Origin: a virus
Direction: 5' to 3' (one strand)
IMG/VR virus record: IMGVR_UViG_3300021404_000006
Span: 54,923-118,922 of that record
Length of the DNA stretch: 64,000 nt
Positions 46,141 to 64,000 of this stretch are shown in pieces. The notes beneath the pieces are model-generated. The model searched no databases. It saw nothing but the letters and a program-made list of their open reading frames with translations, and was not told where the DNA came from. How positions within the stretch are numbered: position 1 is the first letter of the stretch; each line of letters opens with the position of its first letter. Both the position numbers and the translations under genes were made by a program.

Positions 46141-46147
46141 GTCCAGC

Positions 46148-47146: not shown

Positions 47147-47191
47147 GGTAACTCTTTCCTCTCCGGCCGGTTGATATCAGTGTGCCTTGTT

Positions 47192-47653: not shown

Positions 47654-47702
47654 TGTTATTCCTTTCAGAGTCGTTAGGTTTTATAGTCGGAGGCTTTACT
47701 TA

Positions 47703-48211: not shown

Positions 48212-48447
48212 ACTTGTTGCCCTCCTGTACTATTTTTCTTTCCTGAAGGCTTGTTTTTAGTTAGGTGCCAGGAACCGCACGGACAGCGGTACGGGTAGAG
48301 AACATAAGAGCGGGCCTGGAATACGCGGCCGGCGGCGTCACGGGCTTCGGTTATATCCGCGTAGGCGACCTTGCCCTGTTCGTCGCAGGCTTTAAGCTGC
48401 TGCTCTCGAAGTCGTTGCCTTTTATTTCTTCTGCTCTTGGTTGACAC
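48208..48447 (-). CDS. small Zn-binding phage protein (PYxCPxxxWH family)
   Basis: C...GKVAY...YPYRCPCGSWHLT. Confidence 0.65.
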   Translation of the reverse strand: MSTKSRRNKRQRLREQQLKACDEQGKVAYADITEARDAAGRVFQARSYVLYPYRCPCGSWHLTKNKPSGKKNSTGGQQV

Positions 48448-48523
48448 CGTACAGCCTTCTTACTTACGGACTTCTGTATGTTTCAGGAACTTTTGTATGA
48501 AAGTGCGACTTGTGTATGAAAAG

Positions 48524-48588
48524 GCCGCCGGCCACGGGGTAGTTTCATACTCACCCATTTTGGGATTGGTATCCCCGTGGCCGGCGGC
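48524..48588. terminator. 16-bp GC stem with large loop
   Basis: GCCGCCGGCCACGGGG...CCCCGTGGCCGGCGGC flanked by GAAAAG/CTTTTC. Confidence 0.6.
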
Positions 48589-48603
48589 GCTTTTCGCGTG
48601 GGA

Positions 48604-49734: not shown

Positions 49735-49831
49735 GTCAACTCCCTCCAGAGTCGTTGTCTTATCGGTTCGCCGCCCGTCCCGCCTTCCACGCGGGGCGGA
49801 CAGCCAGCCGACAGATGTAACGCCGGCAGGT

Positions 49832-50005
49832 CTAGATTTGTTCCTTGCGCCACGCCTTGAAGCGCTCGCTGTGCGGTCGTTTTAGTTGATTGTTGTGCAG
49901 GTAGCTGGTCATGTGTACGCACATGCTTCCTTTGCGGGCACCGCACTTCGGGCAGTCCACCGCGTTTACGATCAGGTCGTATTCCCCGGTATATGGTTTT
50001 TCCAT
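49832..50005 (-). CDS. small zinc-finger protein (57 aa)
   Basis: AVDCPKCGARKGSMC...PHSER. Confidence 0.65.
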   Translation of the reverse strand: MEKPYTGEYDLIVNAVDCPKCGARKGSMCVHMTSYLHNNQLKRPHSERFKAWRKEQI

Positions 50006-50025
50006 CAGCATTACCAGCCGGTTTC

Positions 50026-50325
50026 CTAGTGGTCCGTAAGGTGGACGAAGCCCACTTGCCGACTCCCGGCCATGATGGGCGCGTGCCCGTAAGAGACTGA
50101 GTTTTCAAGTTCCCAGCCATCCGTCCGGATAACGGGACCTACGGTCACCTTGACCAGATCGCCGTTTTCGTCAGCCGCGTAGATGCCGGCCACGCCTTTC
50201 ATTGCGTCGCAGTCGGCCATGTCGAACATGTTGGATACGCGGCTTTCATAAGCCAGTGCGAGTGTATTGTCCTCGAAGACGATGACGAACTGTTCGTTCA
50301 TGGGTTCGGTCATGGGTTCCCCCAT
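50026..50325 (-). CDS. hypothetical protein
   Basis: ORF in the early-gene run. Confidence 0.6.
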   Translation of the reverse strand: MGEPMTEPMNEQFVIVFEDNTLALAYESRVSNMFDMADCDAMKGVAGIYAADENGDLVKVTVGPVIRTDGWELENSVSYGHAPIMAGSRQVGFVHLTDH

Positions 50326-50492
50326 AGCTTGCGGATACTGATTTCTGCGGTATGCATGTCGTCATCCGGGTTTTCCTGCCCGAACGTGACGCCCATGAGG
50401 AACGCCGCCTCTGTGACAGACGATGCCTCTATGTCGTACCGCTGCGGTTTGCCGTCGATGGTCAGCAGGAACGGGTAGATGCGTTCGTTCAT
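50310..50492 (-). CDS. hypothetical protein
   Basis: SD AGGGG. Confidence 0.6.
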   Translation of the reverse strand: MNERIYPFLLTIDGKPQRYDIEASSVTEAAFLMGVTFGQENPDDDMHTAEISIRKLWGNP

Positions 50493-50500
50493 TGGTTCCC

Positions 50501-50794
50501 CTAGCTAAAGCCGCGTGTCCAGCCGGTAGACCAGCCGGGAGTGGCGATGACAGCTTCATCGTCTATCGACGCATTGCTGTCTCCTTGTGGCTCTTCGGCG
50601 TACAGATAGGCGCTGTGCGTGAATGGCGGATTGGCCGGTTGTACGCTGATGATGTAATTTCCGTCACCGGCCAGGACCAGTGCATCGCCATCGGTGGAAT
50701 AGAAGACTTTACTGCTAGGCAGCGCGGCGGTGATGCGGTCTATCTCGTCTAGTACGGCATCAGAGATGTGCTTAGGCATCTCATGATAGGTCAT
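50501..50794 (-). CDS. hypothetical protein
   Basis: ATGA coupling. Confidence 0.6.
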   Translation of the reverse strand: MTYHEMPKHISDAVLDEIDRITAALPSSKVFYSTDGDALVLAGDGNYIISVQPANPPFTHSAYLYAEEPQGDSNASIDDEAVIATPGWSTGWTRGFS

Positions 50795-51111
50795 GACGGG
50801 AATTCCCTTCCGTAGGGCCAGTGGTCGTAGCCATCGGTGGTAATGCCGTCGTCATCTGATAGCGCCTCATACAGGGCGTCATCGCGGATAGTGAAGCTCG
50901 GGGCCGGCAGGTCGCTTAGTCCCTCGCGGATAGCGGTCATTGTGTCGGGGTCGGCCAGGATTTCCGCTGTTTCATTTTCCATGCTGGCTCCGCAGGGGCT
51001 ATCGGTACCGTCTGCGAGCAGGCAGGGCGGATTGTGCTCGCATTCGGCGTATATTGTTTCGTCTTCACCGGGGTACCAGTTGTCGCCTGGCCCGTCCCAG
51101 ATTTCGGACAT
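50791..51111 (-). CDS. acidic hypothetical protein
   Basis: SD GGAGG; ETAEILADPDTMTAIREGL resembles a YefM/Phd antitoxin C-terminal segment. Confidence 0.6.
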   Translation of the reverse strand: MSEIWDGPGDNWYPGEDETIYAECEHNPPCLLADGTDSPCGASMENETAEILADPDTMTAIREGLSDLPAPSFTIRDDALYEALSDDDGITTDGYDHWPYGREFPS

Positions 51112-51237
51112 TAGATATTCTCCTCCAGGTAGCAGGAAATTCCGTGACGGTAGTCGGAGAGGACTTTACCGTTTGACAGGACTACCGTAATCCGAGCGGA
51201 TGATCCTACGGGTATCTGCCGTCCGCAGTAAGAGCAT

Positions 51238-51717
51238 CTATGCTGCTTGCGCGTCTGCTCTACTTGTCGGCGGGCGAGGACGGTGTAATCGAATTCGGAA
51301 TTGTAGTCGCTGTAACATTCCGAGATTGAATTGCCATTGGGTTTTGTTGTCGAAGTCATTGCGTCCGTTGTACCCCCATGATTTGTCGCCCCATCGCGCG
51401 GCTGGGTCGGCGTCGAATACCTCCGCCATGAACCAGCCCCATTCGTGCCAGGTGGCAGCGAAACGGTAATGCGGGCTGTACGATCCGTTGCGGACACGTC
51501 GGCTCTTCTGGCGCTTGCCGTATCGGTTCGTGTAGTCCTCGGGCAAGCCCCCTCCCGTTTCCGCGCCTAGCTGTATCTCGTAAGCGCGCTCATGGGTATA
51601 CGAGTCGTGCGCCACGATCGGATCGAACTGCACGTCTTGCGTTATTAGTCCTTTGTCCTTTGCGGATTTTAGCGCCGCATATATGTCGTCTGCGGTTAGG
51701 CTGGTATGGAGTCTCAT
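51238..51717 (-). CDS. hypothetical protein
   Basis: AATWHEWGWFMAEVFDADP.A. Confidence 0.65.
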   Translation of the reverse strand: MRLHTSLTADDIYAALKSAKDKGLITQDVQFDPIVAHDSYTHERAYEIQLGAETGGGLPEDYTNRYGKRQKSRRVRNGSYSPHYRFAATWHEWGWFMAEVFDADPAARWGDKSWGYNGRNDFDNKTQWQFNLGMLQRLQFRIRLHRPRPPTSRADAQAA

Positions 51718-51845
51718 AGCAGTTCTGCCTTTCGCATAGCTGTTTCGACTTTTACCGGCTGTGCTTCTATCAGGTACATTAGCAAGTCGTATGCCTGATC
51801 GTCGGTTAGCGTGAGCACGCGCTTACGTAGTTCTTCGCGTGTCAT
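51714..51845 (-). CDS. small hypothetical protein (43 aa)
   Basis: Coupled ORF; MTREELRKRVLTLTDDQAY... Confidence 0.5.
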   Translation of the reverse strand: MTREELRKRVLTLTDDQAYDLLMYLIEAQPVKVETAMRKAELL

Positions 51846-51846
51846 G

Positions 51847-52080
51847 TCAGTAGCTCCGGATCTTTTCGGTAATGGCGTCTGCCCATTCGTCTAGATGCAG
51901 CTCGGACAGCGGCTCATTCGGATAGTCTTCCGTGCGGCGCTCAGCATCGCCTTTGTTAGTGATTTCCAGCCACGGGTCCTGGTCGCCGAGATAAAAGAAC
52001 AGGTCACCGTCCCTGTCCCGGTAGAGCTTGCCGACTACCGGCTCAGATTTTGATACTGCCTTGATGATTTCCCACGGCAT
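51847..52080 (-). CDS. hypothetical protein
   Basis: GKLYRDRDGDLF. Confidence 0.6.
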   Translation of the reverse strand: MPWEIIKAVSKSEPVVGKLYRDRDGDLFFYLGDQDPWLEITNKGDAERRTEDYPNEPLSELHLDEWADAITEKIRSY

Positions 52081-52271
52081 TTTAAAAAGTCCTTTCGGGG
52101 GGCTTTACCCATGCGACGATTTCATTTCCGGCGCGGTCGCGCACGACGATAATTCCGGCTGCGTGCTTTTCTACGGTGCACGTCTTCGGCCCTTTCCATG
52201 CGCGGAACCTGTCTGCTCCGCAGCGGTAGCAGGCGTATACGGTTCCGTGAATGTAGCCGCTAGCGGTGCCG

Positions 52272-52574
52272 CTATTTCGCTGCTCGGTTCCGAGCTTTAC
52301 GTACTCGTGAACTCTTTCCTTTTTCGGAAGGTCCGTTCGCAGGCCGCACTTCATCCGCCATCCCTGGACCGGGAAATGGGATGCTATTTCGCTGTCGGTC
52401 ATTTCTTTCACGGAGATACACCTCCCAGAAGGCAATTAGTAGGTCGGCTTGGAAGTCAGCGGCCATTTGCGCCGCCCTTTCCCATTCCTCTTGGCTGATG
52501 CCGTTTTCCAGGCAGAATTCTCGGGTGTGCCTCTCAGCATCAGCCAGCGCCTTATCCTCTGCTGCTTTGTTCAT
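52272..52574 (-). CDS. hypothetical protein
   Basis: SD AAGGA. Confidence 0.5.
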   Translation of the reverse strand: MNKAAEDKALADAERHTREFCLENGISQEEWERAAQMAADFQADLLIAFWEVYLRERNDRQRNSIPFPGPGMADEVRPANGPSEKGKSSRVRKARNRAAK

Positions 52575-52830
52575 CGGTCGTTTCCTTTCCTATGCGGATT
52601 TCGTACTGCCTCGCACTTTCTATTGACCAGAACCATTGGTCACCGGCATTGTTAAGCGTACGGAATAGGCGCTTACCTATGTCTGCCGGAAATACACGGC
52701 CGATACAGAAAGCTAGGTTTATTGGTCCTACTTCTGTCTGAATTACCGACTTGTTGAGGTCTTCGGGGCGGATTGTGTAGAACACTCGGCCGGGATCTGG
52801 CTTATAGCCAGGTGCGAATACCTCGCGCAT
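52552..52830 (-). CDS. hypothetical protein
   Basis: TAATG coupling; IGRVFPADIGKR. Confidence 0.6.
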   Translation of the reverse strand: MREVFAPGYKPDPGRVFYTIRPEDLNKSVIQTEVGPINLAFCIGRVFPADIGKRLFRTLNNAGDQWFWSIESARQYEIRIGKETTDEQSSRG

Positions 52831-53300
52831 TACTCGTCTACCTTTCGTGCGATTACCCACCCGATAGGCTGATCGCTCTGTCGCTCTTCCTGCTCTTCGG
52901 TGGCGTACACGCCGGTAACCTCCACGACCACGTACAGGCCGGGGCGCTCTAGAATATCGTCTGCCAGCCGGCCGCCTACGAATTCGGACACGTGCATGAT
53001 AGGACCCCGGTAGCTGTACTGGCTGGTATAACCAGTCATCAGTTCCCATCCCTGGGATTCGACATGCGCGATCATGGCGGCTTCGGCTTCGGCGGTAATG
53101 CTTCCCGCGTCATCTTCGGCGCATTCCACGGTTACCTCTGGCGCATGTACGGGCTGTGAGTCTGTGCCCACGTAGGCTAGCGGGTTTAGGTTAGCGTCGA
53201 TTGCGTACCCGTGCCCAAGCACGCGGATAACATGGTCGAATTCCATGTAGTCATTTAGTTCTACGTTTCTGGTTACCGTGATTCTTTGGACGGTTGCCAT
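52830..53300 (-). CDS. hypothetical protein
   Basis: MEFDHVIRV...GWELMTGYTSQYSYRGPIMH.SEFVGG. Confidence 0.7.
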   Translation of the reverse strand: MATVQRITVTRNVELNDYMEFDHVIRVLGHGYAIDANLNPLAYVGTDSQPVHAPEVTVECAEDDAGSITAEAEAAMIAHVESQGWELMTGYTSQYSYRGPIMHVSEFVGGRLADDILERPGLYVVVEVTGVYATEEQEERQSDQPIGWVIARKVDE

Positions 53301-53776
53301 TACTGGAATCCCTTTTCCTTTCGGTCCAGCCATACGGGGCAGACGGTTTCCCAGTGACCTTCACCGTCGTTGTATTCGGTACCGTCGATTACCGCATGGC
53401 AGCGGGCACATGTCGCGCCGCAGTACTGCTGTCGCCATTCGGGGTCTTCTGGCCCGTAACCGTAATACTCTGGCCCGCATTCGGTGTGAAGGTCGTTGTG
53501 GTAAGGAATGGCCTTCGGGAAGTCGCCGGAATCGAATGATCCTTCATCCATGCGGTCGATACCGCGCGCCGCTGCCATACGGTCTAGGCGGTGCTCAGTG
53601 CAGTTGCACGCGGCGCGATGGTACCCGGTCCCGCCGAGTCTATCGATGACGCGCTTTTTCCCGTGTATGTCCAGCCCGTAGGTGTTGGGCTTGGCGGCTA
53701 CCTTGTAGATGCAATCGAGACAGTAGTGGTCGGCCTGGTAGTCGTATCCTACGGGTGAATAGGCTTCATGGCTCAC
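53300..53776 (-). CDS. Cys-rich hypothetical protein
   Basis: GYDYQADHYCLDC...FDSGDFPK. Confidence 0.7.
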   Translation of the reverse strand: MSHEAYSPVGYDYQADHYCLDCIYKVAAKPNTYGLDIHGKKRVIDRLGGTGYHRAACNCTEHRLDRMAAARGIDRMDEGSFDSGDFPKAIPYHNDLHTECGPEYYGYGPEDPEWRQQYCGATCARCHAVIDGTEYNDGEGHWETVCPVWLDRKEKGFQ

Positions 53777-53814
53777 GGGTTAACCCCCCTGGTTAATGAG
53801 CTGCCTGTTAACCT

Positions 53815-54018
53815 TTACTTGTTAGCGCTGGTGATCTCTGCAAGTTCGCGGTCTAGCGCCTCGCGTTCTTTCCTGGCTACTAGCCATGCCTCTAGCGGCG
53901 TGAGCGCGTTCGGCCCGTACCTGTAGATGTGGCGCATGTAGTAGATGCTTGCCCAGAGAACCACCCCGGCAGCTACGGAAGCTGCCAGGATGGTCACGCC
54001 GGCCTGGTTAGGAGTCAC
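53815..54018 (-). CDS. small membrane protein
   Basis: N-terminal TM helix. Confidence 0.6.
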   Translation of the reverse strand: MTPNQAGVTILAASVAAGVVLWASIYYMRHIYRYGPNALTPLEAWLVARKEREALDRELAEITSANK

Positions 54019-54463
54019 GCGGTTCCCATTCGTCGTTTAGGTCGTCATACTCTGCCGTGCCGTCGTACACGTCATCATCGTCGCGGTACTGCCAGCGCTT
54101 CAGGTCTACAGCGTACAACGCGTTGTCGTACTCCGGACATTCCATCGCCACCTCTGCCTCTGCGAGGTGCGCCTCCACCATCTCACCGAACCACGCGAAC
54201 AGTTCGCCATCGCTGTTGTTGGCGGCGTTCCAGACCAGCTCTGCGGATGTGATGGACCGCAGCGGCGGTACGTACGCGTTGCCCGTGATCCAGACGACGG
54301 GACCGTGCAGGGTACGCGCCTCATGGATGATGGTGTCGGCTACCTCGCGGGCTAGCTGGCGCACGATCCCCCCACCCATGATCACGGGCAGGGCTTCGGC
54401 GTACGGGTAGCGGCTGGTGGCTATCGCGATCTCGCCGTTCTGCGTGGTTGTGTAATTGCTCAT
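54008..54463 (-). CDS. hypothetical protein
   Basis: SD GAGGA; 151 aa. Confidence 0.65.
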   Translation of the reverse strand: MSNYTTTQNGEIAIATSRYPYAEALPVIMGGGIVRQLAREVADTIIHEARTLHGPVVWITGNAYVPPLRSITSAELVWNAANNSDGELFAWFGEMVEAHLAEAEVAMECPEYDNALYAVDLKRWQYRDDDDVYDGTAEYDDLNDEWEPRDS

Positions 54464-54548
54464 GATGCTTCCTCGCTGCTGTTCAGTTCGCGCTGCTCTT
54501 CGATGGCTTCGATTAGCTCGGCTTCGGTCATGTCGTCTGACAGGTACA

Positions 54549-54788
54549 TCAATGCATATCCCCCCTAGGCTTGAAGGTCCATTCGAGTACGCGGTCCCAT
54601 GCGCAAGCGAACCTAGGACCGCCGGCGTAGCCATTGAACCGGCTAACGAAATACCGGAGTTCACCGCTGGGCATGGTTACGGCAGTAAAGGAATACTGCT
54701 TACCCTGAATTACCCGCCGCCATATGCGGCTTTCGCCGTGGTTCGGGTCTTCGGGTATGTCGCGGAATATCTGACCGCGTTCGCTCAT
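54549..54788 (-). CDS. hypothetical protein
   Basis: ATGA coupling. Confidence 0.55.
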   Translation of the reverse strand: MSERGQIFRDIPEDPNHGESRIWRRVIQGKQYSFTAVTMPSGELRYFVSRFNGYAGGPRFACAWDRVLEWTFKPRGDMH

Positions 54789-55162
54789 AGCTGATACCAT
54801 TCCTTGCTGACGGGATTCCAGTAGTGGATCTCGGTAGCGCCGGCGTTGGGCCTGCCGAAGTCGTCTAGCGGCTCGAATAGCTCTTGACTGCCGTATTCAG
54901 CGGCTTCCCCGGTACGAATACCGGAATAGTACAGTTCGCCGTCGTCATCGTAGATTTTGAACCACTGGCAAGGCGTACCCTGCCACTTGTCTTTACCGGC
55001 ATTAGCGGCGCGGTGCAGGATACCGAGGAGATCCTGGGACGCGTCACGCGGTCCCGTTAGCCCCCTCGCATTGCAGAGTGAGCCTAGCGGGTACTCTGGG
55101 TCTGCGATCGAGTCGTGCGTGATAAGCCATGCGTACGGAGCGGTCATTGCTGGATAAACCAT
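54785..55162 (-). CDS. hypothetical protein
   Basis: FKIYDDDGELYYSG...PLDDFG.PNAGAT.I.Y. Confidence 0.7.
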   Translation of the reverse strand: MVYPAMTAPYAWLITHDSIADPEYPLGSLCNARGLTGPRDASQDLLGILHRAANAGKDKWQGTPCQWFKIYDDDGELYYSGIRTGEAAEYGSQELFEPLDDFGRPNAGATEIHYWNPVSKEWYQL

Positions 55163-55324
55163 CCTATCTCGTCGCTATTGCCTAGCAGGTGGCCATTACC
55201 TAGCGGTGCGTACGTACCTCCGTCAGCGGCCACGTACAGAGCGTTTAGGCGGTCTGTGTCTGACAGATCCGGGTAGTTTTCGCGAAGGTGCCTGATAATC
55301 AGGGATAGGGTCATCGCTAATTCC

Positions 55325-55549
55325 CTACAGGATCGGGCTGGGATTAGGGATCGGGTCCTTGGAGTTCTCTTCCATCCACTGGATTTGATCCACGACCTTA
55401 AAGGCTATGGTCTCTTTACCTACGTTCGGGAAGAGCATTGCGTAGTGCAGAGGATAGGTAGCCATTAGCTGGCCCCTCTGCTCTTGTGTCATGTTGCGGA
55501 GAAAGAAACGGAGTAGTTCATCTTTCTCTGGCGGATTGATGTGGCGCAT
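55325..55549 (-). CDS. hypothetical protein, MTxEQRxxLM family (paralog 1)
   Basis: NMTQEQRGQLMATYPLHYAMLFPNV; paralog at 59850. Confidence 0.65.
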   Translation of the reverse strand: MRHINPPEKDELLRFFLRNMTQEQRGQLMATYPLHYAMLFPNVGKETIAFKVVDQIQWMEENSKDPIPNPSPIL

Positions 55550-55560
55550 TGGTTACCCTC

Positions 55561-55830
55561 CTAGAAAGGCGGTGCGAATTGCTTTGCGCGCTGTGCCGCG
55601 AAGGTTTCGTCAATGTGATGGATGATACCGCCGAAGTAGTGCGTGGAGGCGATTATTTGCAGCATGTAGGCGATGCGGTGCGCATCATTGGGATCGTCTC
55701 CGTAGATAGCGCCGATTTGCTCGCACAGCATGATTACCTCTTTGTAATCGCTGCTGTTGTATGCGGCCAGCATCTTTTCTGAAAGAATGTTAACGCTATC
55801 GATAGCGGCTCGGTATTCTGATAGCTCCAT
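55561..55830 (-). CDS. hypothetical protein
   Basis: 89-aa ORF. Confidence 0.6.
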   Translation of the reverse strand: MELSEYRAAIDSVNILSEKMLAAYNSSDYKEVIMLCEQIGAIYGDDPNDAHRIAYMLQIIASTHYFGGIIHHIDETFAAQRAKQFAPPF

Positions 55831-55832
55831 GG

Positions 55833-56018
55833 CTACTCGCTTTCGTCGCTGTGGTTGTACTCGTTGGGGCATCGGCCGGCTGGCGCGGGAGTGAACAGCG
55901 TAGAGATAGAGTCGTCCCACCTAAAGCCGCACGCGCCACACTCGGCTACGTCGTTGGGGTCTGTGTCTGGCGTAGCGGCTACCTTAGCGAGCATGGCCGC
56001 GTATGCTTCTGGCGTCAT
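55833..56018 (-). CDS. small Zn-binding protein
   Basis: CGACG..WDD...TPAPAGRCP.EY.H. Confidence 0.65.
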   Translation of the reverse strand: MTPEAYAAMLAKVAATPDTDPNDVAECGACGFRWDDSISTLFTPAPAGRCPNEYNHSDESE

Positions 56019-56203
56019 GCGTTGCTCTCCGGTTCGTGCTTACGGTTAGCGTAGGAAAGATCGCACACGTCATAATCGAGTGAATCCACCCATATGCCGG
56101 CGGGTGACGGGCTGATTACCTTACGGCAGTGCTTGCAGCGCTCATGCGCGACGATAGGCGGTTTCCCTGCCTGCCTTGCGCGTAGCATCTCGATGGGAGT
56201 CAT
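56015..56203 (-). CDS. small Zn-binding protein
   Basis: CKHC...W...C...HEP. Confidence 0.6.
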   Translation of the reverse strand: MTPIEMLRARQAGKPPIVAHERCKHCRKVISPSPAGIWVDSLDYDVCDLSYANRKHEPESNA

Positions 56204-56400
56204 TCGTTGTCCTCTGACATGGCGTAGGCCTCTGCGCGCTCATGCGCTATCTGTGAGGCGATGCGGCGGGTAGTGCGGTCTGCGGACAGTGAAAGCGCGT
56301 AGATCTCTGCGTCGCCCATTCTCTTGATTTGCCGGGCGATGTGCCGGACAGTGGCGGAGTCGATTTGCTTGGCAGTGTTGACTCGTCGCGGCTTAGCCAT
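56200..56400 (-). CDS. hypothetical protein
   Basis: Coupled ORF. Confidence 0.6.
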   Translation of the reverse strand: MAKPRRVNTAKQIDSATVRHIARQIKRMGDAEIYALSLSADRTTRRIASQIAHERAEAYAMSEDNE

Positions 56401-56405
56401 TTCGC

Positions 56406-56774
56406 TTACTCTCCGTAGTAATAGGTTGTGCCTAGGAATTCGACGGATGAAAAATCGGTTTGCAGGTCACTGGCGTACTGGTCATAGTCGAAGTAAGAAG
56501 CGATGCCGGTTTTGTCCAGGTCCCATTTGTCGTTAGCATCATCGCCGGCGTACTTTTTCCAGTGGTCATCTGAGATCATGGCCCCGAATTCGTCGCCAAT
56601 GGCTTCTACCAGTTGACGGAGCGCCTTTAGCTCTTCGATTTCATCGGCCCAGAGTTCGCGGTCGGATTCTGACATGTCGTCATCGTCTAGGAATGCGAGG
56701 TAATCGATGCGGTCTGTTACCTGGCTATCGCTGATAATGTTTTCGTCGCGTAGGCTGTCGCGGTCGGTTGTCAT
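56406..56774 (-). CDS. acidic ArdA-like antirestriction / DNA-mimic protein
   Basis: Very acidic; SYFDYDQYASDLQTDF...GTTYYY resembles the ArdA C-terminal YxDYExxARD motif. Confidence 0.6.
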   Translation of the reverse strand: MTTDRDSLRDENIISDSQVTDRIDYLAFLDDDDMSESDRELWADEIEELKALRQLVEAIGDEFGAMISDDHWKKYAGDDANDKWDLDKTGIASYFDYDQYASDLQTDFSSVEFLGTTYYYGE

Positions 56775-56850
56775 TTACCCTACTCGCTTTCGTTGTTTTA
56801 CTTGCCCCTGGTTACGCTGCATCTAGCGTCGCGTATTGGTCGGGGACGGT

Positions 56851-57204
56851 TTACGGGTGATTGGGGGTCCGGTAGGTGTTGTTGTCGGCGGTGGTCCTGC
56901 TGTCGTCCTCGCCCATGGCGTACATGACCCAGGACGGCGCGTTGTCCTGCCCTAGGATGGCGTCTACAGGCTCAAAGCGGGGACCATCGGGAGTGTCGCG
57001 GACAGTGCCAATGAGCACGTCTCGCCCGCTGGCGTGGCTTCCGTAGGTCATGTAGATCTCGAATGAGTCGCGCTCTCCGGCGATGGGCACAAGGCGAACG
57101 CCTGCGTTCCAGCCGCGAAGGTGCACGGGTCCGGCACTGCCGCGTCCCCCGATGCCTACCTCATTGCCTCGCCCGTTGGTGGCGGTTGTGTAGAAGCGTG
57201 CCAT
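56851..57204 (-). CDS. hypothetical protein
   Basis: MARFY...HLRGWNAGVR...FEIYMTYGS. Confidence 0.7.
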   Translation of the reverse strand: MARFYTTATNGRGNEVGIGGRGSAGPVHLRGWNAGVRLVPIAGERDSFEIYMTYGSHASGRDVLIGTVRDTPDGPRFEPVDAILGQDNAPSWVMYAMGEDDSRTTADNNTYRTPNHP

Positions 57205-57532
57205 GGTATTACCTTCCCATTTGGTTTAGGCGGATTATCTGGCCAGCAACAGCCCCGCATGTGAGCAATAGCTGTAGGCCATTTATCCACCACTGGTGAT
57301 ATATGCATTCCAGTGAAATGCAGACGACAGATATTGTCAGAATTGCGGCTACGTGCTGCCAGAAGATAGCCAAACTCCGATGGGTCATATCGCTTTTCTT
57401 TCGGCTAGCGGTTGTCCTGGTACGGGTCTGTGGCTTCGATGTATTCGGTATCGGTCATACCGTCGCGTAGAGCAGAATCCAGGTCATAGGCGGAGTCGGT
57501 TAGGTAGCGCTGGTAGGCGGCGGACATGAGCG

Positions 57533-57811
57533 TCATACCAGCCGCAACCCTTGCAGGGCACGCGCGGGAGCCGATAGGCCGACATTCTGTCCGGTGGGGT
57601 CCTCCTGCACTATGAGATCCACGGCACGCCGGAAACTCGCTAGCCCGTACTTGTCTATGACTCCGCAGAGCAGGAATACCAAGTCGGTAGGGGTTAGCTG
57701 AATTTCTACCGTAGGCTTATCCTCCGCATCTATGTCATGCGCATTAATGGATAGTCCGTAGCGGTTTTCTGTGTCGTAAGACATTAGGTCTACGATGCGG
57801 TGTGTGGTCAT
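57533..57811 (-). CDS. hypothetical protein
   Basis: SD GAGGT. Confidence 0.6.
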   Translation of the reverse strand: MTTHRIVDLMSYDTENRYGLSINAHDIDAEDKPTVEIQLTPTDLVFLLCGVIDKYGLASFRRAVDLIVQEDPTGQNVGLSAPARALQGLRLV

Positions 57812-57815
57812 TGGC

Positions 57816-58097
57816 TTACCTCTTTGGATCGTGGCGGGGAGCGTTTACCTCACGTGAGGTGTGCTTGACGGCTGCGAACCGGCCATCACTGCTAAAGGTC
57901 CATACGCTGTGGTGGTCGCCTTGGACGGTCACAGTCTGGCCGGTAACGCGGTCATACCGCGTCCAAGGCCCTAGTTCCATGCGCTTAATCCACAGTCGGC
58001 CGTTGATATACATCTGGTGTGTGCGCGCCGGCCGGTATTGCGGGAAGTAGGGGCCATCGTAATCGTACTGGCGGCCATTCAGATCTTTACCCAGCAT
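57816..58097 (-). CDS. hypothetical protein
   Basis: Overlapping ORF. Confidence 0.55.
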   Translation of the reverse strand: MLGKDLNGRQYDYDGPYFPQYRPARTHQMYINGRLWIKRMELGPWTRYDRVTGQTVTVQGDHHSVWTFSSDGRFAAVKHTSREVNAPRHDPKR

Positions 58098-58455
58098 TTG
58101 AGTAACGCCTTCCGTAGCGGGATTCCGGGTTTGAGATGAAACTGGTCTTGCGTGCGAATTCAGCGGCTCTAACTCCGCCCATACCGCATTTCAGCAGGAC
58201 GTTAAGAGCGGTAGCGGCATTCTCGGCACGTTCGCGGACCTTCGCTAGCTGCTCTGCGGCTACGATTCGCTTGGCTTCTGCTAGGCTTACTCCGCTTTCG
58301 CACCAATGGCACATCCAGTCGATACCGCATCCGCCCACGTAGGTACCGTGCACGCAGAGGTCGCCATCGTAGTAACTCTGAGTCGGACGGTCGTCACGGT
58401 CGTCGCGGTCGTCCATATCGGACATGAGATCATCGTAAGAATAGAACTCGCTCAC
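58087..58455 (-). CDS. hypothetical protein with Zn-binding motif
   Basis: SD GGAGGT; CVHGTYVGGCGIDWMCHWCESG. Confidence 0.65.
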   Translation of the reverse strand: MSEFYSYDDLMSDMDDRDDRDDRPTQSYYDGDLCVHGTYVGGCGIDWMCHWCESGVSLAEAKRIVAAEQLAKVRERAENAATALNVLLKCGMGGVRAAEFARKTSFISNPESRYGRRYSNAG

Positions 58456-58459
58456 GGTT

Positions 58460-58648
58460 TTACCTCCGCCGGCGATTGTAAGAAAAGCGGGTAATTCCGC
58501 CATTGGCGGCCATTGTCTCGGTTATGAGAATGCGCATGGATTGCTTTGTGTCGGCTTTGAGGATTCCCCATGGGGTACGCGCATACCAGCGGATACCGCT
58601 GGAATTCATGTCAGCCCGAAATATGTCTATTCCCCTGTAAGTCCACAC
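58460..58648 (-). CDS. hypothetical protein
   Basis: WTYRGIDIF...NSSGIRWYA...LKADT. Confidence 0.65.
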   Translation of the reverse strand: MWTYRGIDIFRADMNSSGIRWYARTPWGILKADTKQSMRILITETMAANGGITRFSYNRRRR

Positions 58649-58651
58649 GGT

Positions 58652-58864
58652 TTACCTCTCGGTGGGGTTGCCGTAGTAATCGGTTTGCCCAGGTTGGTCT
58701 AGCAGAGCTTCAATTACCTCTTTGATGATGGCGCTGGCGTTGCTTGCGCTAGTGCGCGCGGACATAGGATTGGCGGTAACGTCTCGCTTGGCACTGATAA
58801 CGCATCGGTTAGCGCTATGCAGTTTCTCGGCCAGTGCTTTTGCGGTCGCGTTGTCGATTGGCAT
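58652..58864 (-). CDS. hypothetical protein
   Basis: SD GGAG. Confidence 0.6.
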   Translation of the reverse strand: MPIDNATAKALAEKLHSANRCVISAKRDVTANPMSARTSASNASAIIKEVIEALLDQPGQTDYYGNPTER

Positions 58865-58867
58865 TGA

Positions 58868-59110
58868 TCACTCCGCTAGTTCGGGGAATTCATCAGGCCA
58901 CGTCTCGCGGTAAACGACTGTCCCGTGATTGTTGATGCGCTCTTGCGTGACGGTCATGTACTTGTATGCGAAGACCATATTTTTCGGATGTGACCTGATG
59001 CGCAGTTCATCTAGAATGGCATCCCTAGCGCGCTTCTCACTGTCGCTATCGATTGGAACTGACGCGTGCCACACACCGTATCCGTCAGCCCACGTTACTA
59101 TCTGCTCCAT
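58868..59110 (-). CDS. hypothetical protein
   Basis: VTWADGYGVWHASV. Confidence 0.65.
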   Translation of the reverse strand: MEQIVTWADGYGVWHASVPIDSDSEKRARDAILDELRIRSHPKNMVFAYKYMTVTQERINNHGTVVYRETWPDEFPELAE

Positions 59111-59114
59111 TGTC

Positions 59115-59354
59115 CTACCTCACGGAGGTTAGTTCGTTTGTGATGGCGGATAGCTTCCACGGTAGGACGCGAAAGCCTTTACCAGGTACCGGCCACACGC
59201 GGTAATGATCGTTGCCGACACGCGTTGTCTTGACAGTGAAGCATTCTCCGTCTACCAGTCGCCGGCGGATAGTGTTTGATATGGCTACCTCACTCATATA
59301 TGTGCGTTCTCGCATGAGGGTAGCGAAGGTTGCCGGATACAGGAATACAGGCAT
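59115..59354 (-). CDS. hypothetical protein
   Basis: SD GGAGGT. Confidence 0.6.
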   Translation of the reverse strand: MPVFLYPATFATLMRERTYMSEVAISNTIRRRLVDGECFTVKTTRVGNDHYRVWPVPGKGFRVLPWKLSAITNELTSVR

Positions 59355-59569
59355 TTGCTTACCTCCGTCAATGGAGCGGTAGCGGGCTAGTCACAAGATC
59401 GCCCGTTACCAGGGTTTGCATGTCTACTGAGTGACCATGCCTGATATTGTGCCATGGCAGGATATGGTTCCTGCTTACACCCGTTAGGGTCATGGCCCGT
59501 TGCTTTACATGGTGGGCACCTCCATTGCCCAGACGATAAGCGATGCCGATTGGCGGCCGGATTGGTAGG

Positions 59570-59773
59570 TTACTCGAATTCATCCTTCCATAGCTCGGAA
59601 TCGGCTCGGTCAAGTCCGTCTAGAGACAAGCCTTCAAATTCTGCCACGTGGCCGCGACACAGATTCATGTCCGCATCGTCACTGTCCATTGGCTCGAATT
59701 CGCTGTTTTCGTCTGCGCACCATGCGCAATCGTTGCCGGCCGGAGTCTTATACCAGTCGTCTTTCATGCTCAC
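59570..59773 (-). CDS. small acidic Zn-binding protein
   Basis: CAWC...LCRGHVAEFEGLSLD. Confidence 0.65.
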   Translation of the reverse strand: MSMKDDWYKTPAGNDCAWCADENSEFEPMDSDDADMNLCRGHVAEFEGLSLDGLDRADSELWKDEFE

Positions 59774-59849
59774 GGGGTTACCCTCCGTTTACCTAAACCA
59801 GATGCGCGCAATGCGCTTGTTGACGGTCGGGGCGTCGCTAGGTGTGCTG

Positions 59850-60110
59850 TTAGGCTTGGGCGCTGGTTTGGGTCGCTGAATTTGGGTCTGGCCGGCCATA
59901 ACGGTACTCCGAATTCTGCTCGGTTAGAGCGTCGCTTACTACGGTTGTGATCGTTTCATGGCTCACGCTAGGGAAGGTTCGCGAGTAGAGCAGCGGTCGC
60001 TCCGACATTAGCAGCTTGCGCTGCTCCATGGTCATGTGCTGGATTAGCCACGCGGCTAGCTCCTCCGCATCGCCGATCCCCATGGATTTGCCGACAGAAT
60101 TGTAAAGCAC
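59850..60110 (-). CDS. hypothetical protein, MTxEQRxxLM family (paralog 2)
   Basis: HMTMEQRKLLMSERPLLYSRTFPSV. Confidence 0.65.
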   Translation of the reverse strand: MLYNSVGKSMGIGDAEELAAWLIQHMTMEQRKLLMSERPLLYSRTFPSVSHETITTVVSDALTEQNSEYRYGRPDPNSATQTSAQA

Positions 60111-60115
60111 GGTGG

Positions 60116-60370
60116 TTACTGCCTTTCGTCATGGTCTGCGATAAGCGCTAGCACGCCATCGCCTAGGGTGGTGAACTCGCCCGGTACGCGTGCTGATGAA
60201 CGCTCGGCTAGTGAACCGTGGGGCCGGAATGCTTCTATCCCGTTGGGTCCGGCGTTAACGGTTCCGATTATCTGGTTATGCCAGTCGGTAACCTCGCTTA
60301 CCGGGCGATCGTAGACAGAGACGGAATGGTCAGAGGTGGCTTTGCATCGGAGTAGGACAGATATATCCAT
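60116..60370 (-). CDS. hypothetical protein
   Basis: 84-aa ORF. Confidence 0.55.
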   Translation of the reverse strand: MDISVLLRCKATSDHSVSVYDRPVSEVTDWHNQIIGTVNAGPNGIEAFRPHGSLAERSSARVPGEFTTLGDGVLALIADHDERQ

Positions 60371-60380
60371 GGCCTTACCC

Positions 60381-60599
60381 TTAGAACGTGGTTTCCGTGA
60401 CCAGGGTTACCGGGAAGTCCTCCGGAGTGACGCGGGTTGAACCGATGGGCGCACCGTAAACGTCGCACGCCACGTAAGTAACCTCATGCCCGCATAGAAT
60501 GCGGTGCGACATGTCTTCGCGTTCGCTTACGCTGTTGTCGGTGGCGTAGATCCACATCCGTTGGAGCGCGACGGTAGCCTTTACGTGTTCGGTTTTCAC
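60381..60599 (-). CDS. hypothetical protein
   Basis: GTG after SD GGGGGA. Confidence 0.5.
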   Translation of the reverse strand: MKTEHVKATVALQRMWIYATDNSVSEREDMSHRILCGHEVTYVACDVYGAPIGSTRVTPEDFPVTLVTETTF

Positions 60600-60609
60600 A
60601 AGGTCCCCC

Positions 60610-60912
60610 CTAGTGAATTTCGTGCTTGTTGTCCAAGGCGGAATAGGTGACGGTCCAGTGACGGACGACAACTGCCTCATGTAGACCAGCGCGGTAATCA
60701 ACCATCGCTGTGTAGGGCATGCGTGGCTTGCGGGTACGGTCTAGGAACCTAACCAGGTCAGCGCCGGACATGTCCGAATACTGCTTTCGGTTCACGCGGC
60801 GTATGCTAGCCTCTATTGCTCGGCTATCTGGGTGTGATGTGTTCCAATGCGGTCTTGGAGAGACTACGGCCGGCGGTAGTGGCATGCGAGCATACTTGTT
60901 CTGAGTACCCAT
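60610..60912 (-). CDS. hypothetical protein
   Basis: SD GAGGT. Confidence 0.55.
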   Translation of the reverse strand: MGTQNKYARMPLPPAVVSPRPHWNTSHPDSRAIEASIRRVNRKQYSDMSGADLVRFLDRTRKPRMPYTAMVDYRAGLHEAVVVRHWTVTYSALDNKHEIH

Positions 60913-60915
60913 GGC

Positions 60916-61080
60916 TTACCTCTCGGTGGGCTTGGAGCAGACGTGATGCGTAATGCAGACGTGCACGCGGCACGTGGGGCAAGCTGCGAACGTGTGGCGT
61001 CCGTTCCTGCCATAGCTGCCTGTAGATGCTGCCAGGCGCGTGTGGAGCGCGCTGATTATGGCCGCGTAGTGCTCACCCAT
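60916..61080 (-). CDS. small Cys/His-rich protein (54 aa)
   Basis: SD AAGGA; CPTCRVHVCITHHVC. Confidence 0.45.
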   Translation of the reverse strand: MGEHYAAIISALHTRLAASTGSYGRNGRHTFAACPTCRVHVCITHHVCSKPTER

Positions 61081-61166
61081 GGCATGATCCTTTCAGAGAC
61101 TGCCCTAGTCACGTTGCATCCAGCATCACGCCTAAAGCTGGCGTTCGCTAGCGATACGGCCAGAAA

Positions 61167-61475
61167 CTAGCGGCAGTCTAGGACTAGGGCGTGGGCATCG
61201 GAGGGGGCATCGTACGTGTCGTGGTCGCGAACGTCCGTGTAGAGGACAACTACGTCCGTACCCAGCACGTGCCAGGGTGCCGCGATGCTGTCAGCCATGA
61301 GGGTATTGAGATGTGCGGCTGTTTTGCTGTGGTTCCAGGTAGCGAACGCTGCGCATGTCCTCGCGGTAGGTGAGAGGCCAGTCGCGTTCGCCGCGTTGCC
61401 CGCTAGGCTCGCGCCGGCGATGCCCGCGAAGGCTACGCCGGCAGCTAGCGCTGTGATCTTGAGTCGCGTGATCAT
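61167..61475 (-). CDS. secreted protein (signal peptide)
   Basis: MITRLKITALAAGVAFAGIAGASLAGNAANA; paired Cys. Confidence 0.7.
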   Translation of the reverse strand: MITRLKITALAAGVAFAGIAGASLAGNAANATGLSPTARTCAAFATWNHSKTAAHLNTLMADSIAAPWHVLGTDVVVLYTDVRDHDTYDAPSDAHALVLDCR

Positions 61476-61639
61476 GAGAAGTTCCATCCTCCGTCTGTCC
61501 GCGCGTCGCCAACGCTCCGCACGTACTCTACTAGTGACGCGACAGCATCGGATGCGTATCCGTCAATCTGTCGCTTGGTGGCTGTGTCTGCGTCGCGCTG
61601 TGTCCAGTTAAGGAAAATGAGCAGCTTGAATTCATCCAT
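61472..61639 (-). CDS. small hypothetical protein (55 aa), first gene of the leftward early run
   Basis: SD GGGGGT; MDEFKLLIFLNWTQRDAD...; ATGA overlap with the next gene. Confidence 0.55.
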   Translation of the reverse strand: MDEFKLLIFLNWTQRDADTATKRQIDGYASDAVASLVEYVRSVGDARTDGGWNFS

Positions 61640-61649
61640 CGTTATTACC

Positions 61650-62860
61650 CCCCGATTTGATTCTGATATTCCTGCTATTTCGGCTTTATCTCTGCGTGGC
61701 TGGTATTAGCGAACAATGGCTAATGACGATCAGTTTTCACACAAACGCGAATCTCACGCGTCACAGGTAGATTTGGCTGAAATAAGTAGTCAGCACTAGT
61801 TAGGGAATTATGTTTTCAACCTAACTAGTGCCTAGCGCGACTAGTGTCATCTGATGACTGGCCTAGCGCGCTCCACAGTGACTCGATTTAGGGATACTGC
61901 CCAGACAACTCGCGTTGCTGCGTATCCTGCTGTCGAATGTGCGGAGCGCGCTTACCCTAGCCGCAAATAGATGTGCAGACCATTTGTACGTTGCACATCG
62001 TTTTGCGATTGGATATGCCCTAGCCAGGGTTGCGAATCCCTGTTGTCCAGACTGCGAGTTTCACCAAAGGTGATGACTGGCCCTAACTAGGTGAAGCGTG
62101 GCTTACGTTCACAACTCGCGTTGATCGCTGCCAGCGTTCACAACCGCGATTGATCGTTAGGTAAAGCGGGTAATGGCTCACGTACACAATTCGCATTGAT
62201 CGCTGCCAGCGTTCACAACTGCGATTGATCGTGTGATGTAAAGCCGGAATGCCGTTTGGCTAGATTGTGCCAACCCCCTAGGCATTGGCGATCTAGTGAC
62301 GGAACACATTCCGTAGCGCTCTTAGCTTCACTCCTAAGCGAGCATTCATCCTATTCGTGCCTAACGGCATCATGGGTGTAATCGCTACGCGATTAAGTAG
62401 ATGAATTGTGCTTTATCACCCATTGCATTCCTAAGTGTGTGGAAGACACTTAGATATCGTCGCTAGCAGATTGTGCCCCAAGACCATCATGGCCGGCACT
62501 TGCGTCACTGTGTGACACGGTTACCTCGCTAGGTAAGTGGGAGTAACGCTCTTACGCGTTCCCTGCTAGTTTTCGTCTGTTTCTGAGTCTCGGATAACTG
62601 CCAACTGCCTACCATTTGATATTGCAGGCTACTTGTGTAGCGTGGCCCCTAGGGGGCTTTTCCTGCCTCAATCGTCTTACACTCGCGTGCAACACATCGG
62701 CTCAAATGTACCGGCTGGATTCGGTTGTCCTACTGCCCGTTACTGCCTCACTCGCCCGAGAGCGCCTAGCCATTTAGCACGTGCTAGGAACGTGGGGGAC
62801 GGTGCCGCGTGCGGGGAACGCATCCCCCGAACCTTGCTCCGTTCCGCTTTGCTGTTGTGA
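61650..62860 (-). ncRNA. candidate large (about 1.2 kb) structured non-coding RNA or leader
   Basis: No credible ORF; more than 15 hairpins, many GNRA-capped; long-range stems; G-U pairs favour the minus strand; promoter directly upstream. Confidence 0.6.
62099..62244 (-). repeat. tandem 75-bp duplication holding four CGAUCAA-N5-UUGUG(A/U)ACG hairpins
   Basis: Copies at 62106-62127, 62135-62156, 62181-62202 and 62210-62231. Confidence 0.85.
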
Positions 62861-62865
62861 TGGCT

Positions 62866-62893
62866 ACATTACGCTCTTTCCTAAATACGTCAA
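62866..62893 (-). promoter_or_regulatory. sigma70-type promoter driving the leftward transcript
   Basis: TTGACG-16 nt-TAATGT. Confidence 0.6.
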
Positions 62894-63820
62894 ACATGCA
62901 GGTCAGAGCATGTTTCCGTTAGGTTTGTTCGATGAAACGGCCCAAAACCCGGGTATATTGTACCGTTATGTCCGTTTCGCCAAGTCAAGACTTCTGGCAA
63001 GATTTTTCCTAGATTTCACGTTTCCGCAGGTCAGAAGCCTAAAAAAGTTTTTCAACCCTGCTGGGCAGGCCTGCACACGCGCACACGCGTACACGCGCGC
63101 ATGCGTACGTGTGCGTGTTCCTCTGTTGGGGCTTGAAGGCGGCAGAACGGGCCTGTAACCAGCCTGGTTAACCTCTCGCGTGTGCCTGCCTAACCCGGCT
63201 GGTTAAAGCGCTCAGATTGGCTCTGTGCGGCTCAAAGGTTGCTACGTGCGAAGCAAGTATCGTGCCGGTTCCAGCCGACTAGACCTGGTGTGATTGGTCC
63301 AATGTAAGATTTCCTGCGGTAGCACATCGTGGCGGGAAGATTTGCGGAATCGCCAGCAGTTCCAGGCGCGATGGGCAAAAGGGACATATCACGATTTATC
63401 ACGATTTATCGGGGCGACAAACCGGACATTTCGGACGGACAAAACGGACATGTCCGGCATGTCATAGCAAGCAAGATTTCCTGCCTGATCTAGCTTTCGC
63501 AGGAAAAACCAGCATCTAGACCTGTTGAGATTGGTCTGAATTCGAGAGAACTTTCTAGCAGGTTAGGGCTGGAAGGCTACATTGGTGGTTCTAGAACCAA
63601 TTCTAGAATGACGTTTCCGCTGGTCACAGGCTTGCCCTGCCCGCAATGTCCGTATCCGTCCACATTCCAGGCTTTCGATTTACCAGCCCTAGCCATATCG
63701 AACTGTAGCTATCGCGAGATCTAGGCAGGCTAGGTATCCACCACCTAGACCGGGCTAAAGTCCGGCTACGTGGCTCTCAGAGCCCTTACAGGCCATGGTC
63801 TGGCTTGCCCTAGTTTGTCT

Positions 63821-64000
63821 AGCCACAGAGCCAAGCCATAGGCATAGCCAAGCCACAGAGCCAAGCCATAGGCAGAGCCATAGGCAGAGCCATAGGCAGA
63901 GCCATAGGCAGAGCCATAGGCAGAGCCATAGGCAGAGCCATAGGCAGAGCCATAGGCAGAGCCATAGGCAGAGCCATAGGCAGAGCCATAGGCAGAGCCA
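63821..64000. repeat. 12-bp tandem repeat (AGCCATAGGCAG)n running off the window edge
   Basis: About 11.4 perfect units from 63864 to 64000, preceded by degenerate AGCCA units. Confidence 0.95.

Follow-up and report, generated by a model that had tools for sequence, protein, structure and literature searches.

A discrete, relatively abundant noncoding RNA at the head of the leftward early genes of an uncultured actinobacterial soil phage

A noncoding region close to the right end of an uncultured soil phage genome is covered by a discrete, relatively abundant RNA of ∼0.93 kb, which is seen as one long contig in each of three soil metatranscriptome runs. The stretch of DNA analysed (the window, 64,000 nucleotides) corresponds to positions 54923-118922 of the virus record IMGVR_UViG_3300021404_000006, that is, the right half of a 118,922-bp record, and positions below are those of the window unless the genome is named. 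The transcript as seen spans 61918..62847, and would be at most ∼1.07 kb if it reached a hairpin at 61831-61793. A preliminary description of this DNA had proposed a large noncoding RNA of ∼1.2 kb at 61650..62893, heading a leftward run of early genes that it put at ∼19 kb. An RNA is indeed found there, as a single ∼0.9-kb contig in each of the three RNA runs, though it is ∼0.93 kb rather than 1.24 kb long. Its position, abundance and general build make this RNA an analogue of the Pleft RNA of Cluster A mycobacteriophages, while it lies outside that family. The kind of RNA is already known from actinobacterial phages, even if its function is not, and the present sequence is new.

A discrete transcript in soil metatranscriptomes

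In a public-run index, three soil metatranscriptome libraries each contained 26% of the sampled words of 60500-64000. The contigs of the runs, each carrying its depth as a single figure, were compared with positions 46000-63800 (17.8 kb). Every RNA run yielded one long contig that was 100% identical to the window: 61918-62846 in run X1 (929 nt, depth 6.72), 61929-62847 in run X2 (919 nt, depth 29.1) and 61950-62847 in run X3 (898 nt, depth 10.2). The remaining 14 listed phage pieces in these runs measure 151–315 nt at depths of 2–5.5, with two further X2 pieces falling outside those 14. In the DNA run X4, 23 of 30 bins are thinly covered, and the bins of this region show no excess (0.35 and 0.1, versus 0.14–1.95 elsewhere). 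The presence of one long, deep contig in all three RNA runs, combined with the lack of an excess in DNA, indicates a discrete transcript of ∼0.93 kb. No RNA contig was found over 61444-61917, 60850-61443 or 63226-63800, although gaps between contigs prove nothing by themselves; the segment 61650-61917, including the terminator-like hairpin at 61831-61793, is thus outside the RNA contig cover.

The possibility that this signal is an artefact of DNA in the RNA libraries, or that the region holds missed genes for small proteins, appears very remote. RNA libraries can contain DNA, but carry-over DNA would cover the phage evenly, and the observed cover is uneven: only this 0.9 kb assembles long in all three RNA runs, at a place where the depth of the DNA run is low. 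As for coding content, the open reading frames (ORFs) within 61640-62893 are at most 75 aa long, apart from one 125-aa plus-strand ORF that leaves the stretch. Short minus-strand ORFs of 37–43 aa do exist, but they lie inside hairpins or repeats, show no ribosome-binding sites by eye and lack the codon-position GC pattern of genes. That pattern, GC3>GC1>GC2, was found in none of the 12 junction ORFs tested, and GC3 is 0.45–0.59 in the ORFs inside the region versus 0.57–0.82 in 12 comparison genes, whose GC2 is 0.38–0.52. These results agree with the preliminary view that the region holds no credible ORF.

The three contigs share one end, at 62846/62847, which is 19 nt below the −10 hexamer of a promoter-like sequence, TTGACG-N16-TAATGT, present on the minus strand at 62866..62893 as previously described. 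From this arrangement we infer that the RNA is transcribed from the minus strand, with its 5′ end at the shared contig end. The opposite ends are ragged (61918, 61929 and 61950), and all fall within a long hairpin at 61952-61865. The pattern TTGAC[AGT]-N16-18-TANNNT has only two matches in the 118,922-bp genome, of which the site at 62893-62866 is one. A generic consensus promoter scan did not list the site, because its −10 hexamer agrees with TATAAT at only three of six positions. An equivalent with the same spacing, TTGACA-N17-AATGT, is present at L002:2862-2889 in the only long relative of this phage, a 117-kb IMG/VR record (G001, locus L002). A second promoter-like motif on the minus strand, CTGACC-N17-TAGGAA (62878..62906), overlaps the first and recurs 128 nt upstream at 63006-63034, giving two leftward occurrences in the window versus 0.18 expected from shuffles. 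Boxes resembling CTGACCTGCGGAAAC precede both the leftward and the rightward gene sets (63613-63627; genome 613-630). These repeated junction motifs may be regulator sites or phage-specific promoters. Separately, one contig of the DNA run X4 matches the window as far as 62876, within the promoter, beyond which 32 letters of the contig differ, a possible sign of a variant population in which the sequence upstream of the RNA is another one.

Predicted fold and internal repeats

A partition-function fold of 62859-61780 gives 25 helices (at least four stacked pairs, each with p≥0.8) comprising 156 pairs, and in this model the RNA is a chain of ∼20 local hairpins and three multi-helix domains. All 10 stems listed in the preliminary description are present. 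Folding exceeds that of shuffled sequences, as had been expected: 61918-62859 on the minus strand gives a z-score of −3.63 (none of 20 shuffles as good), with coding controls scattering around 0. The same interval on the plus strand gives −3.76. The two halves of the region differ, with 61650-62270 at −5.36 on the minus and −5.75 on the plus strand, and 62271-62866 at −2.47 and −1.02, respectively; single domains on the minus strand range from −1.4 to −4.95. In sliding 150-nt windows, z is ∼0 in the coding control 59000-61650, between −2.4 and −6 across 61700-62100, and mostly between −1 and −2.7 on the minus strand across 62100-62650. Near-continuous folding of the minus strand had been claimed; the 25 confident helices fit that claim, but the excess is lacking in the first ∼200 nt and, being symmetric between strands, does not point to the minus strand. 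Nor do G-U pairs single out the minus strand, as had been argued: they make up only 10 of the 156 confident pairs, so an argument from them carries little weight. The several GNRA loops reported earlier reduce to two confident ones, both GCGA.

Towards the 5′ end, the model contains a five-way junction domain (62463..62569, minus strand) in which the closing stem CUAGCAG/CUGCUAG surrounds four hairpins, among them AACGC-GUAAGA-GCGUU, UUACCU-AGCG-AGGUAA and GUGUCAC-ACA-GUGACGC. For 62455-62575 the folding energy is −45.2 kcal/mol (z −2.91), a value that 2 of 200 shuffles attain, and three of the hairpin stems reach p≥0.8. A tRNA-like reading of this domain was dropped, as ARAGORN reports only a tRNA-Ile at 41558-41630. 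On the same strand, 62372..62453 holds the hairpin CUAAGUGU/ACACUUAG (62453-62431) and the domain AUGGGUG...CACCCAU, which would enclose UAAUCGC-GUA-GCGAUUA (z −2.86 for 62365-62460).

Further towards the 3′ end lie two tandem 75-nt repeats, 92% alike (62099..62232, minus strand), which contain four 21-nt units and the palindrome CGCUG-G-CAGCG. The 21-nt unit, GATCAAYSSSRRTTGTGWACG, has four copies in the same direction, at 62230, 62201, 62155 and 62126, which are its only copies in the genome; it could serve as an RNA module or be bound as DNA. It differs from the stoperator of Cluster A phages, GGTGGMTGTCAAG, whose sites lie both in the leader and elsewhere in the genomes of those phages, along with a repressor operator at the promoter; no repressor was identified in the present phage.

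These repeats bear on a reading that we regard as improbable, namely that the region is a DNA element, such as a replication origin or a regulator-binding region, whose transcription is incidental or activates or primes the origin, as with ColE1 RNA II or T4 R-loop origins. ColE1 RNA II, too, is a structured noncoding transcript of several hundred nt, and it crosses a region of replication control; neither an origin nor an RNase H site nor an equivalent of the antisense RNA I was identified here. The four same-direction units, confined to the 2 × 75-nt tandem repeat, could be initiator or repressor sites, as could the palindromes, and the strand-symmetric folding excess, the location within a 3.1-kb repeat-rich noncoding junction and the enrichment of CTAG over that whole junction would all fit a DNA element. 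The leader of the Cluster A phage L5 likewise carries repressor-binding stoperators, according to the available portions of its description (PMC5712189). Yet the repeats account for only ∼130 of ∼930 nt, no initiator gene adjoins the region (the primase-helicase is ∼29 kb off), and no AT-rich unwinding element is evident at a GC content of 0.52. A DNA element would also leave the several-fold abundance of the RNA over its neighbours unexplained.

The 3′ part of the region is the most strongly folded. A domain closed by the 10-bp stem CCUAGUUAGG/CCUGGCUAGG and followed by the hairpin GAUGUGCA/UGCACAUC is predicted at 61970..62091 on the minus strand (z −3.06 for 61960-62090). Next comes a long, near-continuous hairpin of ∼30 bp (61865..61952, minus strand), with a 13-bp base, AGCGCGCUCCGCA/UGUGGAGCGCGCU, more helices above it and a GCGA apex; at z −4.95, none of 200 shuffles is as good, and the hairpin could serve as a processing or termination site. 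Beyond it, a perfect 12-bp hairpin, GCACUAGUUAGG/CCUAACUAGUGC, followed by UGACUACUUAUUU (61793..61831, minus strand, z −3.67), is a terminator-like candidate. Both hairpins are strong but have no U run, and a terminator scan listed nothing between 61700 and 62000, the hairpin at 61793-61831 included. Actinobacterial terminators frequently have no U run. The 3′ arm of the long hairpin (61865-61877) can also pair at 13 of 13 positions with 61041-61053, ∼810 nt downstream and inside a doubtful 54-aa ORF, and a 26-nt direct repeat (77%) links 61939-61964 with 61040-61065; the complementarity is either a relic of duplication or an option for long-range pairing.

One compositional bias was also noted. 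GGCAG occurs eight times on the RNA strand of 61640-62900 while its complement CTGCC does not occur there, and the counts in the G001 leader (L002:2851-3600) are four and none, where each motif averages ∼2.6 per kb in the genome. The bias could reflect a protein-binding motif or chance; since it was noticed post hoc and Cluster A RNAs do not have it, we treat it as a lead only.

Relatives and the Cluster A Pleft RNA

Judged by the sequence searches made, the RNA belongs to no known family, and no relatives were detected in the collections searched. Rfam 15 (4227 families, including GOLLD, ROOL, OLE, group I and II introns, RNase P, tmRNA and 6S) gave no match at the gathering score in the whole window, consistent with the preliminary statement that the RNA is unclassified and bears no intron, RNase P or tmRNA signature. 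At E≤10, six matches were returned for 61400-64000, five to microRNA models and one to a 25-nt viral pseudoknot, none of them inside the RNA. A distant-mode blastn search of 50,697 phage records found no similar DNA. Exact 24-mers in viral contigs (IMG/VR), and 24- and 27-mers in prokaryote genomes, gave no homologue, such exact-pattern scans being blind to relatives below ∼90% identity. A degenerate 20-base motif common to the present genome (G000) and G001 returned only G001 from viral contigs; in metagenome contigs its two matches were discarded as unrelated, one being dissimilar with 38% GC and the other matching only over the 31-nt motif. Queries with neighbouring proteins were no more productive. 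The 106-aa protein had one relative, G001, and none in metagenome contigs, the methyltransferase and the 181-aa protein gave no relatives carrying the region, and the Cys-rich 169-aa protein led to three further contigs, all of which end before the noncoding region.

In G001 itself, neither a DNA search of the whole record nor an nhmmer search of the RNA against L002 found any similarity to the RNA, and when the two leaders are aligned with MAFFT the result looks random. The promoter layout of G001 is instead followed by a different ORF-free leader of ∼480 nt (z −2.03) and then by six ORFs that are absent here. A single-sequence covariance model of the five-way junction interval 62455-62575 (R2), run against nine loci from G001 and other relatives, had its best hit at E 0.57, outside any leader. 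The available evidence argues against deep conservation.

GOLLD and ROOL are phage-associated, and the preliminary description had pointed to them as possible models. Like GOLLD, ROOL and OLE, the present RNA is at least several hundred nt long and has many helices; what defines those classes, however, is sequence conservation and covariation over many genomes, and none of them matches the present RNA. We consider it improbable that this is an orphan member of such a conserved, ornate class whose relatives are missing from databases. Its ∼0.9-kb length, many confident helices with multi-helix junctions and high metatranscriptome abundance would suit such a member, and GOLLD and ROOL form RNA-only assemblies according to the available part of one report (PMC12286853). 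A conserved fold of this type is, on the other hand, at odds with the lack of any homologue among the 4227 Rfam families, even at E≤10, and among the 50,697 phage records, IMG/VR, metagenome contigs and prokaryote genomes searched. It is at odds, too, with the different leader of G001, the nearest relative, and with a folding excess that has no strand bias.

The closest precedent, which the preliminary description missed, is the Pleft RNA of Cluster A phages (PMC5712189). In the available portions of that account, a noncoding region of ∼500 nt on the far right of the genomes of L5, D29 and StarStuff, between Pleft and gene 89, is the source of the most abundant phage RNA, with the same reported for Kampy, SWU1 and RedRock. 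Some 90% of Pleft transcripts terminate ahead of gene 89, the RNA is processed into species of 100–400 nt, and ∼30 nt at its 5′ end are under-represented in L5 RNA-seq (PMC5712189). Expressed from a plasmid, the region was toxic in M. smegmatis, and apparently in E. coli too, and its left part resisted deletion (PMC5712189, same portions). The D29 RNA is confirmed in the available part of a 2025 preprint (10.1101/2025.11.21.689395).

The present RNA resembles the Cluster A RNA in several respects. Both are ORF-free and lie between an early leftward promoter at the right end and the first small early gene; both are more abundant than the genes behind them, with most transcripts ending before the operon (here judged from contigs); and both have under-represented extreme 5′ nucleotides, the contig end here standing 19 nt below the −10. 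Direct repeats lie inside both leaders (stoperators in L5, 21-nt units here), both hosts are actinobacterial, and the general genome layout is the same. The folding z-scores are close as well, −3.66 for the L5 RNA and −3.63 here. In contrast, this RNA is ∼0.93 kb rather than ∼0.5 kb long, and its phage is an unrelated one of 119 kb with no integrase among the ORFs scanned. No homology of sequence or structure was detectable by blastn, nhmmer or a covariance model (R1) built from the 5′ 185 nt of Cluster A RNAs only, with 43 pairs; in particular, an nhmmer profile of nine Cluster A RNAs found nothing below E 1 in the phage genome. Homologues of the L5 RNA were found in 183 phage records, all mycobacteriophages. 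The right end of L5 has no match in Rfam either, so Rfam cannot judge kinship with the Cluster A RNA.

One short similarity was found near the 5′ end. The 14-nt box CAACAGCAAAGCGG (62857-62844) agrees at 12 of 14 positions with the L5 box CAGCAGCAAGGCGG (L010; L5 record ∼51,655-51,668), at a nearly equal offset from the −10 in both phages; the comparison is post hoc, 15 of 2000 shuffles were as good, and the box is absent in G001. The pattern CAGCAA[AG]GCGG occurs once in the phage genome. At the other end, the L5 Pleft RNA query closes with GGGUUCGAUUCCCGAC (L010 ∼841-860; L5 record ∼51,140-51,160), which looks T-arm-like by eye.

Abundant noncoding RNAs are described in other phages as well. 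In the Rhodococcus phage WC1, nc_3 is a highly transcribed intergenic region at the far right, active from 5 min post infection (available portion of PMC10986025). It is, like the present RNA, an abundant noncoding right-arm RNA of an actinophage, but WC1, a temperate phage of 46 kb, belongs to cluster CA and the likeness is one of description (PMC10986025). The lncRNA1 and lncRNA2 of the Kayvirus vB_SauM-515A1 are 525–570 nt long, reach up to 8.4% of normalised counts and include one transcribed from an early promoter; these adjoin tRNA genes in a Firmicutes myovirus, unlike the present RNA at the head of an early operon (available portion of PMC7698491).

Proposed action and surroundings of the RNA

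We lean, with moderate confidence, towards a discrete and abundant leader-derived RNA that acts on the infected cell much as the Cluster A RNA may, without being homologous to it. In this proposal, transcription would start near 62860 on the minus strand from a sigma-70/sigma-A-like promoter of host type at 62893-62866, and most transcripts would be ended or cut in the hairpin cluster 61952-61793, in which the ∼30-bp hairpin at 61952-61865, where the contigs end, would suit a double-strand-specific ribonuclease. By shielding the 3′ end, the hairpin cluster would let the RNA pile up several-fold over the early mRNAs behind it, while a minority of transcripts would read through into the operon. 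The accumulated RNA would then act on the host cell in trans, by analogy with Cluster A.

Several findings weigh against this proposal. Strand is invisible in the contigs, which would also be compatible with a plus-strand RNA ending past the hairpin at 62794-62828. The runs X1–X3 carry three study codes but are all soil libraries of 2018, perhaps from one campaign and possibly from the source site, and so do not count as independent. Contig depth is a crude measure, and one early-gene piece in X1 has a depth of 5.5 where the RNA has 6.7. All contigs break off 50–90 nt short of the end of the first long hairpin and 90–160 nt short of that of the second, which leaves the 3′ end of the RNA undefined, and the terminator scan is empty there. 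The RNA's first ∼200 nt (62650-62900) show no folding excess, and, z being equal on both strands, palindromes at the DNA level explain the excess elsewhere equally well. The nearest relative, G001, has a different, shorter and dissimilar leader, and there is no sign that the fold is under selection. With the covariance model R1, L5 reaches 191.6 bits and D29 163.4, but with filters off the best score in 61000-64000 was 4.6 bits (E 0.24), which makes the Cluster A analogy one of position and abundance only. Finally, what the Cluster A RNA does is likewise unexplained in the literature, as far as the available portions of its description go (PMC5712189).

An alternative that we think unlikely, though not negligible, is that the region works only in cis, as a long 5′ untranslated region whose hairpins would, through attenuation or antitermination, reduce or time the read-through that reaches the early operon, the fragment in the contigs being a stable product of decay or termination that plays no part itself. 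An antitermination leader, or one that soaks up a protein as a sponge, had also been suggested in the preliminary description. The region does sit directly between the promoter and the first early gene, strong hairpins lie immediately ahead of the operon, and the downstream genes are far less covered in the RNA runs. The G001 leader, ∼480 nt long and ORF-free, has the same promoter layout but another sequence, which fits a role dependent on position better than one dependent on sequence. HK022 put and lambda nut, each consisting of two short stem-loops or boxes with a cis effect on RNA polymerase, offer a model, put being ∼70 nt long. The present RNA is likewise structured, promoter-proximal and at the head of an early operon, with a size that differs ∼tenfold; its 0.9 kb is well above what known attenuators or put/nut sites need. 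No known cis-regulatory family in Rfam matches it. Moreover, the Cluster A analogue is toxic from a plasmid and resisted deletion of its left part, which points to more than control in cis (available portions of PMC5712189).

If the RNA does act in trans, a more specific but tentative version of the leader-derived RNA proposal, which we hold to be less probable than the proposal itself, is that it represents an independently evolved class of ∼1-kb phage RNAs in the Pleft niche, promoter-proximal, early and very stable, acting as effectors of host takeover. One mode of action would be as a decoy for a host RNA-binding protein, a ribonuclease or RNA polymerase. Abundant noncoding RNAs from early promoters are now described in several mycobacteriophages and a Rhodococcus phage, one of them toxic and partly essential, and the function of the mycobacteriophage RNA is unexplained nine years on from its first description. 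That a soil phage of 119 kb, very different from these, carries in the same position an unrelated RNA of twice the length, abundant enough for environmental metatranscriptomes to yield it as a contig by itself, suggests that the phenomenon is widespread and convergent. If true, actinophages in general would have converged on abundant early leader RNAs as a strategy, which would then not be a quirk of a single cluster, and this second, independent sequence would help in finding common traits such as stability elements, hairpin clusters and a 5′ box. The case also illustrates that metatranscriptome contigs are able to confirm candidate phage noncoding RNAs first picked out by reading a genome.

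The record is rated 100% complete by IMG/VR, in the class of direct terminal repeats, but the 'terminal repeat' consists of a 12-nt tandem array, CAGAGCCATAGG, of which 127 nt are found at both genome ends (window 63826-64000 and genome 1-127, with at least 14.7 copies at the right end). With this array at both ends the 118,922-bp assembly closes on itself, and for that reason the ORF-free tract, given as 1.2 kb in the preliminary description, in fact covers window 61640-64000 and genome 128-806, ∼3.1 kb in all. Copies of the array may have been collapsed in the assembly, so the real genome ends are uncertain; synteny with G001 spans the junction, and the two ends of the assembly are therefore contiguous. 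One side of the junction is flanked by the leftward run of small genes and the other by rightward genes that open with a methyltransferase. The remainder of the junction (62894..64000, then genome 128-806) contains the repeated motifs and the 12-nt array.

CTAG is enriched at the right end, with 34 sites in the ∼3.1-kb junction compared with 2.35 per kb genome-wide, and with up to 11 per 500 nt across 61640-64000 and the early genes at 59800-61600 compared with an average of 1.16 per 500 nt over the genome. Enrichment is also present in the G001 leader (8 in 750 nt), but not in the Cluster A RNAs. We had considered CTAG as a motif of the RNA and dropped it, since the enrichment spans the whole junction and the adjacent early genes. 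The three IMG/VR contigs with the Cys-rich 169-aa protein (L006, L007 and L008) all stop 0.3–1.4 kb upstream of its gene, the place of the repeat-rich junction in the studied genome, which suggests a genome end or an assembly-breaking repeat in these relatives too.

The first ORF of the leftward early run (61472..61639, minus strand) encodes 55 aa, has GGGGGG-N8-ATG ahead of it and matched no PHROG or Pfam family. [quoted passage not shown] SsgA-like, Rv2632c-like and DUF4232 proteins serve as actinobacterial markers, and the primase has only distant matches at no more than 26% identity, 18 of the 21 records being phages of Corynebacterium, Microbacterium and Gordonia. This is an uncultured actinobacterial soil phage that has no close cultured relative.

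Other cargo in the window includes a Ro60 orthologue (14563-16287, minus strand; TROVE 7.5e-40, Ro60 vWA 2.5e-65). Upstream of its gene, 0.5 kb of ORF-poor sequence (16300-16800, minus strand) holds about four tandem modules with GAGCCGGA...AATCGGTTATC, three of which carry the T-arm-like GGTTCGAATCC. Rfam gives a sub-threshold match to YrlA, a Y RNA-like family, at 16428-16494 (E 0.025; 22.8 bits, where the gathering score is 69), and the modules are probably an array of phage Y-RNA-like genes. Also unusual for a phage are an SsgA-like cell-division protein (2389-2838), an alpha-galactosidase (Melibiase_2, 1.1e-54; 11218-12342) and a family A DNA polymerase spread over two ORFs (33384-35971).

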